A DNA stretch of 64,000 nucleotides, taken from the NCBI RefSeq assembly GCF_988243305.1, contig NZ_OZ547136.1. The stretch is one strand, 5' to 3'. Of this stretch, positions 6,297-30,934 are shown one piece after another. The translations under genes were made by a program, and so were the position numbers. The notes under the pieces are model-generated. The model was not told the DNA's origin, made no database searches, and saw only the letters and a program-made list of their open reading frames with translations. The first letter of the stretch is position 1. Each line of letters begins with the position of its first letter.

Positions 6297-6540
6297 GGTA
6301 AAAAAACCTCACTAAAATTATGGTTACCAGAATCAGGGCAGTCTTAGGAGTGGCGGCATATAGCCAAAATAACGTGAGCGGGTCCATGCCCGACAGAATC
6401 GTTACTCTCTCCCATCCGGACTCTAACCGTCGGCCCCGGAATTACACCGGATCTGCTGTCCTTTGAGTTCGCACCCAAAGCGCTCGCGGGCTTTCAACTG
6501 AGTTGATTTACCGCCGGTGGGGAATTTCGCCCCGCCCTGA
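6297..6540 (-). ncRNA. sroG: FMN riboswitch (RFN element / sroG) in the ribB leader
   Basis: Minus-strand sequence contains the conserved RFN core (AGGGCGGGGCGAAATTCCCCACCGGCGGTAAATCAACTCAGTTGAAAGCCCGCGAGCGCTTTGGGTGCGAACTCAAAGGACAGCAGATCCGGTGTAATTCCGGGGCCGACGGTTAGAGTCCGGATGGGAGAG) at about 6400-6538. Confidence 0.9.
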
Positions 6541-6669
6541 GAATAAGCGGATTCACTATAACGCTAATGATTAGCGGCAGCAACGCATAGCTTCACATAA
6601 TTCTGGTTTATGACTTACCCTTATCGCACTACAATGGCACTCAACACCTATCAGTACAGGGAAACTACA

Positions 6670-8129: not shown

Positions 8130-9791
8130 ATGGATGATATTGTTAATTCTGTGCCCTCCTGGATGTTTACTGCGATTATTGCCGTATGCATTCTGTTTAT
8201 TATTGGAATTATTTTCGCCAGGCTCTATCGTCGCGCTTCGGCAGAGCAAGCTTTTGTTCGTACTGGTTTAGGTGGGCAAAAAGTGGTAATGAGCGGTGGC
8301 GCAATCGTGATGCCGATCTTTCATGAAATAATCCCCATCAATATGAATACTCTGAAGCTGGAAGTCAGCCGCTCAACCATTGATAGCCTGATTACGAAAG
8401 ATCGTATGCGCGTCGATGTAGTAGTCGCTTTCTTTGTGCGGGTAAAACCGTCAGTGGAAGGTATTGCCACCGCCGCCCAGACGCTGGGGCAACGCACCCT
8501 GTCGCCTGAAGACTTACGTATGTTGGTTGAAGATAAATTTGTCGATGCCCTCCGTGCAACAGCTGCACAAATGACCATGCATGAGTTACAGGATACCCGC
8601 GAGAACTTCGTGCAGGGCGTACAAAATACCGTAGCTGAAGATCTGTCGAAAAATGGCCTGGAACTGGAAAGCGTTTCACTTACCAACTTTAACCAGACGT
8701 CGAAAGAACATTTCAATCCTAACAACGCCTTTGACGCCGAAGGTTTAACCAAGCTGACGCAGGAGACGGAGCGCCGTCGTCGCGAACGTAACGAAGTTGA
8801 ACAGGATGTAGAAGTTGCGGTGCGTGAGAAAAACCGTGATGCGCTTTCGCGGAAGCTAGAGATTGAACAACAAGAAGCGTTTATGACGCTTGAGCAGGAG
8901 CAGCAGGTTAAAACCCGTACCGCTGAGCAGAATGCGAAAATTGCGGCTTTTGAGGCCGAGCGTCGTCGGGAAGCAGAGCAGACGCGAATTCTGGCTGAAC
9001 GACAGATTCAGGAAACGGAAATCGACCGCGAACAGGCCGTCCGTTCCAGAAAAGTTGAAGCTGAACGTGAAGTTCGCATTAAAGAGATCGAACAGCAGCA
9101 GGTCACCGAAATCGCTAACCAGACGAAATCGATCGCTATTGCCGCCAAATCGGAACAACAGTCCCAGGCAGAAGCGCGTGCTAACCTTGCACTTGCAGAA
9201 GCGGTAAGCGCCCAGCAAAACGTAGAAACAACTCGCCAGACCGCAGAAGCCGATCGTGCTAAACAAGTTGCCCTAATCGCTGCCGCGCAGGATGCAGAAA
9301 CCAAAGCGGTTGAACTGACCGTGCGGGCGAAAGCAGAGAAAGAAGCCGCAGAGATGCAGGCGGCGGCAATCGTTGAGTTAGCCGAAGCTACGCGTAAAAA
9401 GGGTTTGGCGGAAGCAGAAGCGCAACGTGCGCTGAACGACGCTATCAACGTACTTTCTGATGAACAAACCAGCCTTAAATTCAAACTGGCGCTATTACAG
9501 TCGTTACCTGCAGTAATAGAGAAATCCGTTGAGCCGATGAAGTCTATCGACGGCATCAAGATTATTCAGGTCGATGGATTAAACCGAGGTGGTGCTGCGG
9601 GGGATGCGGCATCAGGCAGCGTTAGTGGCGGAAACCTGGCAGAACAGGCATTATCAGCCGCACTCTCTTACCGCACACAGGCACCACTGATTGACTCCTT
9701 GCTCAATGAAATTGGCGTTTCAGGCGGCTCACTGGCTGCATTGACTTCACCCTTAACCTCAACAACTCCCGTCGCAGAAAACGTAGAATAA
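8130..9791 (+). CDS. yqiK: SPFH/band-7 (flotillin-like) membrane protein with long Ala/Glu/Gln-rich coiled coil (553 aa)
   Basis: N-terminal TM segment, SPFH-like region, then extended AEAERR-type heptad-rich segment. Confidence 0.85.
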   Translation: MDDIVNSVPSWMFTAIIAVCILFIIGIIFARLYRRASAEQAFVRTGLGGQKVVMSGGAIVMPIFHEIIPINMNTLKLEVSRSTIDSLITKDRMRVDVVVAFFVRVKPSVEGIATAAQTLGQRTLSPEDLRMLVEDKFVDALRATAAQMTMHELQDTRENFVQGVQNTVAEDLSKNGLELESVSLTNFNQTSKEHFNPNNAFDAEGLTKLTQETERRRRERNEVEQDVEVAVREKNRDALSRKLEIEQQEAFMTLEQEQQVKTRTAEQNAKIAAFEAERRREAEQTRILAERQIQETEIDREQAVRSRKVEAEREVRIKEIEQQQVTEIANQTKSIAIAAKSEQQSQAEARANLALAEAVSAQQNVETTRQTAEADRAKQVALIAAAQDAETKAVELTVRAKAEKEAAEMQAAAIVELAEATRKKGLAEAEAQRALNDAINVLSDEQTSLKFKLALLQSLPAVIEKSVEPMKSIDGIKIIQVDGLNRGGAAGDAASGSVSGGNLAEQALSAALSYRTQAPLIDSLLNEIGVSGGSLAALTSPLTSTTPVAENVE

Positions 9792-9989
9792 ATTTTCAAC
9801 TATGAACATCCCTGGCCCAAAAAGCCGGGGATTCTTTATATCTGCGTTCCGATAAAAAGTGCAAATGATCGGGCTGTTGCAGCATTTTGCGTGACCGCTC
9901 GGGGAAGGCAAAACTGCCTCTGGGTAAGCATTGCGCGGGGTCCGGCGTTCATCAACAATCGGGAAGTCAGCAAGGGGCTGAAACGGGAA

Positions 9990-10135
9990 AGCCCCTCCCG
10001 AAGAAGGGGCCTTGTATAAGGAAAGGGTTATGATGAAGCTCATCATCATACTGATTGTGTTGTTACTGATAAGTTTCCACGCTTACTAACAGCCAATCAG
10101 AGGGGGGAGAAATCCTCCCTCACCCTTGTTCCTTT
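9990..10135 (-). ncRNA. sibD: Sib antisense sRNA (antitoxin) overlapping the first ibs ORF; boundaries approximate
   Basis: Established knowledge that Sib RNAs of ~110-150 nt are encoded fully antisense to ibs; ends not determinable from sequence alone. Confidence 0.45.
10030..10089 (+). CDS. ibsD: Ibs-family type I toxin, 19-aa hydrophobic peptide (MMKLIIILIVLLLISFHAY)
   Basis: ORF read directly; fits the Ibs peptide family; location between yqiK and hldE as for ibsD/ibsE in K-12; D versus E assignment is by order only. Confidence 0.75.
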   Translation: MMKLIIILIVLLLISFHAY

Positions 10136-10365
10136 ACTTTAGGTTGAAAAAAAATCAGCGTCAAGAAGGTTTCATTAACACATATTCCTGGCCCAAAAAG
10201 CCGGGGATTTTTTATATCTGCATTCCGCAAAAAACTGCAAATGCTCAGGTCGTTGCAGCCTTTTGCGTGACCGCTCGGGGAAGGGAAAACTGCCTCTGGG
10301 AAAGCGTTGCGCGAGGTCCGGCGCTCATCAACAATCGGGGAGTCAGCAGGGGGCTGAAACGGGAA

Positions 10366-10510
10366 AGCCCCTCCCGAGGAAGGGGCCTTGTATAAGGAAA
10401 GGGTTATGATGAAGTTCGTCATCATACTGATTGTGTTGTTACTAGTAAGTTTCCAGGCTTATTAACAACCAATTCAGAGGGGGGAGAAATCCTCCCTTAC
10501 CCTTGTTCCT
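10366..10510 (-). ncRNA. sibE: Sib antisense sRNA (antitoxin) overlapping the second ibs ORF; boundaries approximate
   Basis: As for the first copy. Confidence 0.45.
10406..10465 (+). CDS. ibsE: Ibs-family type I toxin, 19-aa hydrophobic peptide (MMKFVIILIVLLLVSFQAY)
   Basis: Second copy in the tandem repeat, read directly. Confidence 0.75.
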   Translation: MMKFVIILIVLLLVSFQAY

Positions 10511-10585
10511 TTACTCTAGGTTGAAAAAACAACAGCGTCAATAGGCCCACCTGCTACGAAGCGAGATCTGTGAACCGCTTTCCGG

Positions 10586-12019
10586 TTAGCCTTTTTTATC
10601 CTGTTGGATCTTCTTGATGATGTTGGTCGTCGAGCAACCGTCTTCAAAGTTGAGCACCAACACTTCGCCACCGTTGGCCCAGACTTCTTTACTCCCGGCA
10701 ATCTCTTCTGGTTTATAGTCGCCACCTTTCACCAGCAGGTCTGGCAGGATCCCGGCAATTAAGCGCTGCGGCGTGTCTTCTTCAAACGACACCACCCAGT
10801 CGACCGCTTCCAGTGCGCCCAGCACAATCATACGCTGTTCGAGCGGGTTAACGGGGCGGGAATCCCCTTTCAGCCGTTTGGTGGAGGCATCGCTGTTCAC
10901 AGCGACAATCAGGCGGTCACCCAGTTTGCGGGCATTTGCCAGATAGGAGACGTGCCCGGCATGGAGAATGTCGAAGACGCCGTTGGTCATCACCACTTTT
11001 TCACCGCGTTTACGCGCTGCCGCTACAGCAAGCTTCAGTTCCTCTTCGGTCATCACGCCAAAGCCGGTATCTGCACGTCCACGTACTGCGTTTTCCAGCT
11101 CGATCGGCGAAACTGTGGATGTCCCCAGTTTGCCGACCACCACGCCTGCCGCCGCATTGGCAAAGAAGCAGGCTTCTTCCAGTGAATTACCCGCAGCCAG
11201 CGTTGCCGCCAGGACGCCAATCACCGTGTCGCCCGCACCGGTAACGTCATACACTTCCTGCGCCTGAGTTGGCATATGCAACGGTGCTTTACCCGGTTGC
11301 AGCAGCGACATACCCTGTTCGGAACGGGTCACCAACAGAGCCGAGAGTTCGTAATCGGCAATCAGTTTCATGCCGCGCTCAACAATCTCTTCTTCGGTCT
11401 TACATTTACCGACAACAGCTTCAAATTCCGAGAGATTCGGCGTTAACAGCGTAGCGCCGCGGTAGCGCTCAAAATCGGTACCTTTTGGATCAATCAGCAC
11501 CGGAACACCCGCTTTACGCGCCAGTTGGATCATCTGCTGTACGCTTGCCAGCGCACCTTTGGCGTAGTCAGAAAGCACCAGCGCGCCAATCGAACTCAGT
11601 GCCTGATTAATCCGCTCGTGCAGCGGCTGCGGATCAACCCCTTCGAAACCTTCTTCAAAATCCAGACGGATCAGCTGTTGGTTGCGGGAAAGTACCCGTA
11701 ATTTGGTGATGGTCGGATGCGTCGGTACAGAAACGAAGTCGCATTTGACGTTGACGTCGGCCAGAGATTTACTCAGTGCGCGCGCCGCATCGTCAATGCC
11801 CGTCAACCCGACCAGGCGTGCATTAGCACCGAGAGAAGCGATATTCATCGCCACGTTAGCCGCGCCGCCCGGACGTTCTTCGATGGTATTCACTTTAACC
11901 ACGGGCACCGGCGCTTCCGGCGAGATACGACTGGTGGGGCCGTACCAGTAACGATCCAGCATCACATCACCAACCACCATCACTCCTGCACGTTCAAACT
12001 CTGGCAGCGTTACTTTCAT
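10586..12019 (-). CDS. hldE: Bifunctional D-beta-D-heptose 7-phosphate kinase / heptose 1-phosphate adenylyltransferase (477 aa)
   Basis: Full-length match to HldE (RfaE); ribokinase-like N-terminus and cytidylyltransferase-like C-terminus. Confidence 0.95.
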
Positions 12020-18409: not shown

Positions 18410-18536
18410 GCCGGATGCGATGTAAACGCCTTATCCGGCTACATATCAACGACGGTTGTAGGCCTGATAAGACGCGCGAGTGTCGCATCAGGCGTTGATT
18501 GCCGGATGCGGCGTGAACGCCTTATCCGGCCTACGC
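18410..18536. repeat. BIME: cluster of three REP palindromic units
   Basis: Repeated GCCGGATGCG...CGCCTTATCCGGCCTAC-type motifs between convergent cca and uppP. Confidence 0.85.
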
Positions 18537-30858: not shown

Positions 30859-30934
30859 GGCCCCTTAGCTCAGTGGTTAGAGCAGGCGACTCATAATCGC
30901 TTGGTCGCTGGTTCAAGTCCAGCAGGGGCCACCA
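30859..30934 (+). tRNA. ileX: tRNA-Ile2 (anticodon CAU, lysidine-modified), 76 nt including CCA
   Basis: Cloverleaf sequence GGCCCCTTAGCTCAGTGGTTAGAGCAGGCGACTCATAATCGCTTGGTCGCTGGTTCAAGTCCAGCAGGGGCCACCA; anticodon loop CU-CAU-AA; position between mug and yqjH. Confidence 0.93.

Follow-up and report, generated by a model that had tools for sequence, protein, structure and literature searches.

Two tandem ibs/sib type I toxin-antitoxin modules between yqiK and hldE, a rare allelic form of the Escherichia coli sibD/ibsD-sibE/ibsE locus

In a 64,000-nt stretch of contig NZ_OZ547136.1 (assembly GCF_988243305.1; hereafter, the window), the gap between yqiK and hldE is filled by a tandem repeat, which raises the question of what this DNA encodes. 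An earlier note, made from the letters of the window, had seen there two ibs/sib type I toxin-antitoxin units, and the open reading frames listed by program are instead two of ~100 codons that run across the repeat on the minus strand. Moreover, for two units of such similarity, it can be asked whether each antitoxin would still act on its own partner. The genes on both sides are readily assigned from the Pfam domains of their products: yqiK, on the plus strand with its end at 9791, codes for 553 aa with Flotillin and Band_7 domains, and hldE (10586-12019, minus strand) for 477 aa with PfkB and cytidylyltransferase domains.

The repeat (9787-10541) consists of two head-to-tail copies of one 376/377-nt unit, being 88-94% identical. 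The repeat search of the window reported it as two direct-repeat families, D1 (9787-10086 and 10163-10462, 300 nt, 88% identity) and D2 (10097-10164 and 10474-10541, 68 nt, 94% identity). The start-to-start spacing of the copies is 376/377 nt, which corresponds to one unit of ~376 nt present twice in tandem, and two families are found rather than one because of a 1-nt indel between the copies. A pairwise alignment of the units shows 32 differences in 361 columns. Two ~375-bp direct repeats, each with a 19-aa Ibs-type peptide, had been described at 9800-10550; the spacing and the 19-codon ORF found in each unit agree with this description, and those coordinates cover essentially all of the feature. 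The elements of both units are collected in Table 1.

Table 1. Features of the tandem ibs/sib repeat between yqiK and hldE (positions in the window)
Feature	Position	Strand	Basis
Repeat unit 1, yqiK-proximal, positional equivalent of K-12 sibD/ibsD	9787-10162		D1/D2 repeats, colinear K-12 alignment
Repeat unit 2, hldE-proximal, positional equivalent of K-12 sibE/ibsE	10163-10541		Repeats, colinear K-12 alignment
ibs1 CDS, 19 aa, MMKLIIILIVLLLISFHAY	10030-10089	+	Pfam Ibs_toxin 39.5 bits; RefSeq WP_105461410.1
ibs2 CDS, 19 aa, MMKFVIILIVLLLVSFQAY	10406-10465	+	Pfam Ibs_toxin 41.4 bits; RefSeq WP_072148302.1
Sib1 antitoxin RNA, 144 nt, 5' end 10129, 3' end 9986 past terminator hairpin	9986-10129	-	Ends from K-12 sibD (b4447); Rfam 149.6 bits
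Sib2 antitoxin RNA, 145 nt, 5' end 10506, 3' end 10362	10362-10506	-	Ends from K-12 sibE (b4611); Rfam 142.3 bits
Sib1 sigma-70 promoter, TTGACG, 17-nt spacer, TAAAGT (10164-10136)	10136-10164	-	Promoter scan, 9/12 positions
Sib2 sigma-70 promoter, TTGACG, 17-nt spacer, TAGAGT (10541-10513)	10513-10541	-	Promoter scan
Putative ibs1 promoter and start, -35 TTGCGC 9931-9936, -10 AACAAT 9954-9959, start G9966	9931-9966	+	Start transferred from K-12 ibsD; hexamers inferred
Putative ibs2 promoter and start, -35 TTGCGC 10307-10312, -10 AACAAT 10330-10335, start G10342	10307-10342	+	Motifs as in unit 1
Predicted ibs1 mRNA, about 162 nt	9966-10127	+	Equivalent of the 163-nt ibsD mRNA
Predicted ibs2 mRNA, about 163 nt	10342-10504	+	Homology to unit 1 and K-12 ibsD
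Terminator-like hairpin and T-run, start of unit 1, just 3' of the yqiK stop	9808-9842	+	9-pair stem 9808-9832, then TCTTTATATC; putative function
Terminator-like hairpin and T-run, start of unit 2, downstream of ibs1	10184-10218	+	Stem 10184-10208, then TTTTTATATC
Sib1 TRD1 equivalent, AGCGUGGAAACUUAUCAGUAACA, predicted to pair with ibs1 codons 11-18	10061-10083	-	Transferred from SibC +46 to +68, primer AatIISC+46
Sib1 TRD2 equivalent, UAACCCUUUCCUUAUAC, predicted to pair with ibs1 ribosome-binding region	about 10014-10030	-	Transferred from SibC +99 to +115, primer AatII8-99f
Sib2 TRD1 equivalent	10437-10459	-	Transferred from SibC
Sib2 TRD2 equivalent	about 10390-10406	-	Transferred from SibC
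Spurious 96-aa ORF across unit 1	9759-10049	-	Broken in K-12, no family, unannotated
Spurious 101-aa ORF across unit 2	10120-10425	-	Cut in K-12, no family, unannotated

In each unit, a strong Shine-Dalgarno sequence (AAGGAAAGGG, at 10018-10027 for ibs1) stands ahead of the 19-codon ORF. Both encoded peptides span positions 1-19 of 19 of the Pfam profile Ibs_toxin (PF13956), with E-values of 5e-10 for ibs1 and 1e-10 for ibs2 and scores (39.5 and 41.4 bits, respectively) that exceed the cut-off of 27 bits. As hydrophobic 19-residue peptides above the gathering score, they conform to what is expected of Ibs toxins (18-19 residues), and the membership in the Ibs family assumed in the earlier note is borne out. 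On the other side, an NCBIfam scan matched no Ibs model, being uninformative; its query was a 25-aa in-frame extension because 19 aa is under the search minimum, so that the protein-family support comes from Pfam and from the RefSeq annotation, where an accession exists for each peptide. The peptides differ by four substitutions (L4F, I5V, I14V, and H17Q), all of them listed previously together with a fifth one ("K/F context") that does not exist, K3 being the same in both. Between the two ORFs there are six DNA differences, two of them synonymous (L13, CTG/CTA, and Y19, TAC/TAT).

Opposite to these ORFs, the Rfam model SIB_RNA (RF00113) matches the minus strand at 10164-10015 (149.6 bits) and at 10541-10391 (142.3 bits), both matches covering model positions 1-147 of 147. 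Each unit therefore has a sequence-plus-structure match above the gathering score of this RNA family, which is 56. The ends of Sib1 and Sib2 were set by transferring the annotated ends of K-12 sibD and sibE via the alignment. Their predicted folds have energies of -57.0 kcal/mol for Sib1 (z = -4.1 versus shuffled controls) and -54.8 kcal/mol for Sib2 (z = -4.8); each has internal hairpins besides a closing stem, leaves the UCCUUAUAC stretch single-stranded, and ends in a GC-rich hairpin. Sib1 (9986-10129, minus strand) encloses the Shine-Dalgarno sequence and CDS of ibs1 (10018-10089, plus strand), and Sib2 (10362-10506) does the same for ibs2 (10394-10465). Thus, in both units, the antitoxin RNA lies opposite to the toxin gene over the initiation region and the entire ORF, and from the extents of both transcripts, each Sib RNA would be complementary to nearly all of its ibs mRNA. 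The antisense arrangement that had been expected holds, at the level of sequence, because the SIB_RNA matches cover each ORF and its ribosome-binding site. It had also been stated that toxin and antitoxin must co-evolve in each unit. They are indeed coupled, but this is automatic and imposes no constraint, since the same base pairs specify both; the toxin mRNA is copied from one strand of the DNA and the antitoxin RNA from the other, and a cognate pair stays perfectly complementary under any mutation. What evolves is the discrimination between units rather than the match of a cognate toxin and antitoxin. Other matches to Rfam were not retained as genes. On the plus strand, SIB_RNA also matches with 40.9 and 33.8 bits, which is under the gathering score and is explained by the complementarity of the ibs mRNA to a highly structured RNA, and the GadY and mir-7 matches are due to chance (E = 0.7-1).

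The hexamers of the Sib promoters fall in the first 30 positions of the SIB_RNA model, and a consensus scan found the same sites independently. Judged from the DNA only, each unit has its own Sib promoter and an intrinsic terminator. For the ibs genes, the candidate hexamers are weak, with 8/12 consensus positions, and the promoter scan missed them. The 5' end of ibsD was mapped by primer extension in K-12, its transcript beginning with GTCAGCAGGGGGCTG (Han et al. 2010, PMC2943612 Table 1), and this start motif is found at 9966-9980 in unit 1. The ibsD mRNA is 163 nt long (PMC2943612), and the 3' ends of the ibs mRNAs were placed by the complement of the primer ibsD+163 (AAGGGTGAGGGAGGATTTCTCC). 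Also, the hairpin that the terminator scan found at the head of unit 1 belongs to the repeat. Plausibly, this hairpin ends the transcription of yqiK, and its counterpart in unit 2 may stop read-through out of ibs1.

In E. coli K-12 MG1655, sibD, ibsD, sibE, and ibsE are annotated in the yqiK-hldE interval. The window aligns colinearly with it, and the alignment to K-12 sibD/sibE and ibsD/ibsE, which the earlier note had named as a check, places the two tandem units in synteny between yqiK and hldE. Moreover, a 951-nt query spanning the locus matched E. coli Z1323HEC0462 with 100% identity; in this genome, two CDSs at exactly matching positions are named "type I toxin-antitoxin system Ibs family toxin" by PGAP. 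That ibs-sib units are duplicated in tandem inside a single intergenic region has been described for the family (PMC2887945). Sequence features, family membership, and synteny are observed directly here, and promoter, Shine-Dalgarno sequence, ORF, and terminator are intact in both units. The locus is almost certainly the chromosomal sibD/ibsD-sibE/ibsE of E. coli, that is, two tandem type I toxin-antitoxin modules; nothing counts against this identification, and the feature is an already known one, present here in a rare but catalogued allelic form. The earlier observation is confirmed apart from the miscount of peptide differences, and its interpretation is supported.

Unit 1 occupies the place of D and unit 2 that of E, and in sequence, both peptides are nearer to K-12 IbsD (three differences for ibs1 and two for ibs2) than to IbsE. 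In the alignment, unit 1 has D-like ends and is E-like from about 9896 to 10017, and unit 2 is E-like apart from parts of the ORF. By comparison with K-12, each unit is therefore a mosaic of D-type and E-type sequence, a structure suggestive of exchange between unit 1 and unit 2.

How these modules would work can be proposed from the orthologous and paralogous K-12 loci, by analogy with which transcription, toxicity, and repression through the recognition segments TRD1 and TRD2 would be expected. The K-12 Sib RNAs are transcribed constitutively and repress only the cognate ibs mRNA, with ibsA as an exception in the set, and for the K-12 paralogues, the overproduced peptide is toxic, an effect that its cognate Sib relieves (PMC2943612). 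In SibC, TRD1 (+46 to +68) is a hairpin loop that targets the ORF, and TRD2 (+99 to +115), a single-stranded segment ahead of the terminator, is directed to the region of translation initiation; one of the two is enough, and pairing spreads afterwards (PMC2943612). Then, in each unit of the window, a weak plus-strand promoter would produce an ibs mRNA of ~160 nt, translated into a 19-residue hydrophobic membrane peptide, and a strong sigma-70 promoter on the minus strand would produce a structured Sib RNA of ~145 nt, exactly complementary to almost the entire ibs mRNA, ribosome-binding site and ORF included. The first contacts would be those of the TRD1 hairpin loop with codons ~11-18 of the ORF and of the single-stranded TRD2 with the translation-initiation region, from which pairing would spread along the duplex, and no toxin would be made. 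If Sib were lost, the Ibs peptide would insert in the inner membrane and growth would stop. For a Salmonella Ibs peptide, binding to the a and b subunits of Fo, inhibition of the ATP synthase Fo, and a lower ATP level were reported (bioRxiv 10.1101/2025.05.26.656083).

A comparison among complete E. coli genomes shows that the locus is unusually polymorphic, the neighboring 3' end of hldE being identical between K-12 and the window. A match to the 951-nt query is present in 5,425 of the 5,426 genomes, with an identity of at least 99% in 2 records only, 95-99% in 34, and 90-95% in 5,383. At an identity of at least 99%, the Sib1/ibs1 allele is found in 32 and the Sib2/ibs2 allele in 13 of the 5,426 genomes. 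In the genomes that were fetched, variation in the overlap of RNA and ORF clusters in codons 4, 5, 9, 14, 17, and 18, in a 4-nt core within TRD2, and in a few bases past the stop. This core (CCTT-NNNN-AAGG upstream of GGGTTATGATG), located upstream of the Shine-Dalgarno sequence, was compared in a sample of 25 genomes, and it reads ACAG, GTAT, or ATAG between CCTT and AAGG. The pattern of variation agrees with Han et al., where the TRDs lie in variable regions (PMC2943612), and across the population it is consistent with the published model, which assigns specificity to two variable elements, TRD1 (around codon 17) and TRD2.

In the window, the TRD1 equivalents extend over codons 11-18, with the variable codons 13, 14, and 17 inside and the Y19 difference (10086/10462) just outside; Sib1 and Sib2 differ here at 3 of 23 positions. 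The TRD2 equivalent, in contrast, is identical in both RNAs, and both units have the DNA core CCTT-GTAT-AAGG. Distinctness of co-resident units in both TRDs, a property of the K-12 set and not strictly a defining one, is hence seen in the window for TRD1 and not for TRD2. Two-unit genomes were also sampled regardless of unit 2, nine of them spread evenly over the ranking, K-12 among these, and six with the ibs1 allele of the window, and the cores differ between the units in all 15 (ACAG/GTAT, ACAG/ATAG, or GTAT/ATAG). Because the unit-1 core is GTAT and the unit-2 core ATAG in close relatives, the shared core of the window looks derived, and a 2-nt change or a short conversion tract may have turned ATAG into GTAT in unit 2. 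Among genomes chosen for identity to unit 2 of the window, T-HYM1, MEW, AST215, and 18KM2445 have the same-core state as well, and another one has lost unit 1.

With this variation in hand, other readings of the repeat can be weighed. The minus-strand ORFs of 96 and 101 aa could be taken as the real genes and the small ORFs as incidental, given that both start with ATG, have about 100 codons, and occur once per unit. Nonetheless, their likeness is due solely to the repeated DNA, and their frames are not kept in K-12: no ORF of at least 30 aa exists in unit D at the place and frame of the 96-aa ORF, which is broken by a 1-nt indel in a GGGG run, and the counterpart of the 101-aa ORF in unit E is cut by such an indel to 59 aa, with a different C-terminal frame. 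Neither ORF has a significant match in Pfam or NCBIfam or a PGAP/RefSeq annotation in the genome with identical sequence (Z1323HEC0462), and both lie across the curated genes for the RNA and the peptide, whose scores are far over threshold. The probability of these ORFs being genes is accordingly negligible, and the earlier view of them as artefacts stands. Plus-strand ORFs of 42-89 aa with TTG or GTG starts inside the repeat were likewise rejected, having no family matches and frames that are not kept in K-12. Another reading takes one unit as a copy in decay that has lost its function. Single-unit genomes at this locus (SCU-111, GF3-3, and 2012C-4221) do indicate that a second copy is dispensable. 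However, both units of the window retain the -35 and -10 hexamers of Sib, the terminator hairpin, the Shine-Dalgarno sequence, the ATG, and an uninterrupted 19-codon ORF with its stop; also, both RNAs exceed 140 bits with SIB_RNA and both peptides pass Ibs_toxin, which makes decay of either unit very improbable.

A more balanced case is the insulation of the two units, both taken as intact. In the lineage of the window, each Sib might also repress the ibs mRNA of the other unit through the shared TRD2, the antitoxins being then redundant. In the assays of Han et al., one matching TRD, 1 or 2, was sufficient for repression of a non-cognate ibs by a Sib (PMC2943612), so that Sib1 and Sib2, with TRD2 in common, may cross-repress, and for redundancy there is a reported precedent in ibsA of K-12. 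The difference of cores in the 15 sampled genomes, six close relatives with the ibs1 allele of the window among them, points in the same direction. In a simple duplex model, the isolated TRD2 pairing in the window has the same energy for cognate and non-cognate pairs (-25.5 kcal/mol), whereas for K-12 D/E the non-cognate energies (-19.6 and -20.2 kcal/mol) are weaker than the cognate ones (-28.1 and -25.5 kcal/mol); moreover, the non-cognate penalty for TRD1 is 9-13 kcal/mol in the window and 18-22 kcal/mol in K-12 D/E. Against this reading, TRD2 requires an accessory contact of the P6 loop (PMC2943612), and this loop differs between Sib1 and Sib2 at two positions, which are complementary to codons 4 and 5. 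Also, K-12 D and E share an identical run of 36 nt over the Shine-Dalgarno sequence and start codon, and yet they are reported as cognate-specific (PMC2943612), which indicates that shared sequence by itself is no predictor of cross-talk; for this reason, the longest identical run between units was dropped as a predictor in favor of the comparison of TRD cores. The energies are those of a simple duplex model, and the same-core state is not exclusive to the window, being found in the four genomes named above. Taken together, we regard the loss of insulation as a tentative proposal that leans toward the doubtful side. Somewhat more doubtful still is its extension to a small sublineage (about 13 of the 5,426 genomes, those with the unit-2 allele), where the unit-2 core would now equal that of unit 1 and the Sib RNAs would have partly lost discrimination and cross-protect.

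If cross-repression occurred, this would be a naturally occurring exception to the rule that the ibs/sib units of one genome remain different in both recognition segments, and the lineage of the window could offer a natural test of whether one shared segment suffices for it; even so, this would be a small variation inside a known system. The assignment as sibD/ibsD-sibE/ibsE matters little beyond correct annotation. The ibs/sib genes are often missed by gene callers, which may call antisense ORFs of ~100 aa in their place, and their recognition avoids such false genes.

Finally, the closest known system is K-12 sibD/ibsD and sibE/ibsE (b4447/b4664 and b4611/b4666), which shares with the window the intergenic region, the two-unit layout, the strands, and the unit length, the Sib promoters, 5' hairpins, and terminators being also the same. 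For the K-12 lineage (NCM3722), the locus is about 93% identical to the window. The peptides are different, IbsD being MMKLVIILIVLLLVSFAAY and IbsE MMKLVIILVVLLLLSFPTY as compared with MMKLIIILIVLLLISFHAY and MMKFVIILIVLLLVSFQAY in the window; for example, residue 17 is H or Q in the window and A or P in K-12. Moreover, the two units of the window have one TRD2 core in common, whereas D and E of K-12 have different ones. The experimentally dissected sibC/ibsC of K-12 (PMC2943612) belongs to the same Rfam and Pfam families, and its P1 closing stem, TRD1 loop, single-stranded J1/7 with TRD2, and terminator are matched in the predicted folds of the window. However, sibC/ibsC is a single unit at another chromosomal locus (fau-serA), and its TRD1 and TRD2 sequences differ from those of the window. 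More distantly, in ldr/rdl (the LDR repeats) and zorO-orzO/zorP-orzP, RNA antitoxins are likewise paired with small hydrophobic toxins, and the pairs are tandem duplicates that share an intergenic region (PMC2887945, PMC3919570), although their toxin and RNA families are unrelated to ibs/sib. In these systems, the antitoxins overlap the mRNA partially or are divergently encoded, whereas Sib covers the whole functional ibs mRNA.

The two ibs/sib units of the window, unit 1 next to yqiK (the sibD/ibsD position) and unit 2 next to hldE (the sibE/ibsE position), share one recognition core, CCTT-GTAT-AAGG, in TRD2, the Sib segment that pairs with the ibs translation-initiation region. Unlike this, in a comparison set of other two-unit E. 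coli genomes, picked irrespective of what their unit 2 looks like, the cores differ within the genome in every case (15 of 15), being ACAG, GTAT or ATAG at the four variable positions. The same-core state is also found in four genomes carrying the unit-2 allele of the window.

A comparison of diagnostic sites over 9806-10541 with the K-12 locus (L002) reveals that each unit mixes D-type and E-type sequence, the stretch from about 9896 to 10017 of unit 1 being E-like and the ORF of unit 2 being partly D-like. This mosaicism of both units suggests that gene conversion or recombination has exchanged tracts between the tandem units. A single unit lies between yqiK and hldE in some E. coli genomes, namely the strains SCU-111 (L013), GF3-3 (L014) and 2012C-4221 (L021), the lone copy being IbsD-like, IbsE-like or like unit 2 of the window across the three cases. 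Unit number at this locus is thus a copy-number polymorphism, and the one-unit loci probably arose by unequal recombination between the repeats.

Each repeat unit opens, in its first ~35 nt, with a terminator-like hairpin followed by a T-run, in unit 1 likely the terminator of yqiK; the duplication would therefore have copied it, and the second copy now lies 3' of ibs1, the toxin ORF of unit 1. Between the hairpin and the inferred ibs promoter, a stretch of ~90 nt is kept across units and strains, and many of the between-unit differences fall within it. Other RNA elements of the window are also listed below.

RNA-related features of the repeat units and of the rest of the window
Feature	Position	Strand	Remark
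Hairpin and T-run, unit 1	9808-9842	+	
Hairpin to promoter, unit 1	9843-9930		
TRD2 core, unit 1	10010-10021		
Hairpin and T-run, unit 2	10184-10218	+	
Hairpin to promoter, unit 2	10219-10306		
TRD2 core, unit 2	10386-10397		
FMN riboswitch	6400-6548	-	Rfam RF00050, 120.9 bits; presumably ribB leader, judged by K-12 gene order
naRNA4 match	18461-18531	-	Rfam RF02564, 77.1 bits
tRNA gene, anticodon CAT	30859-30934	+	tRNA-Met by ARAGORN; judged by E. coli position, might be lysidine-modified tRNA-Ile2 (ileX)

Finally, in unit D of K-12 (1623-1826 of L002), the GGGG run that lies 5' of ibsD is one G longer than in the window, which brings a TTG-initiated ORF into frame with ibsD and results in a mechanical ORF of 67 aa. 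This ORF is probably meaningless, and it illustrates how indels in the GGGG run reshuffle spurious ORFs.
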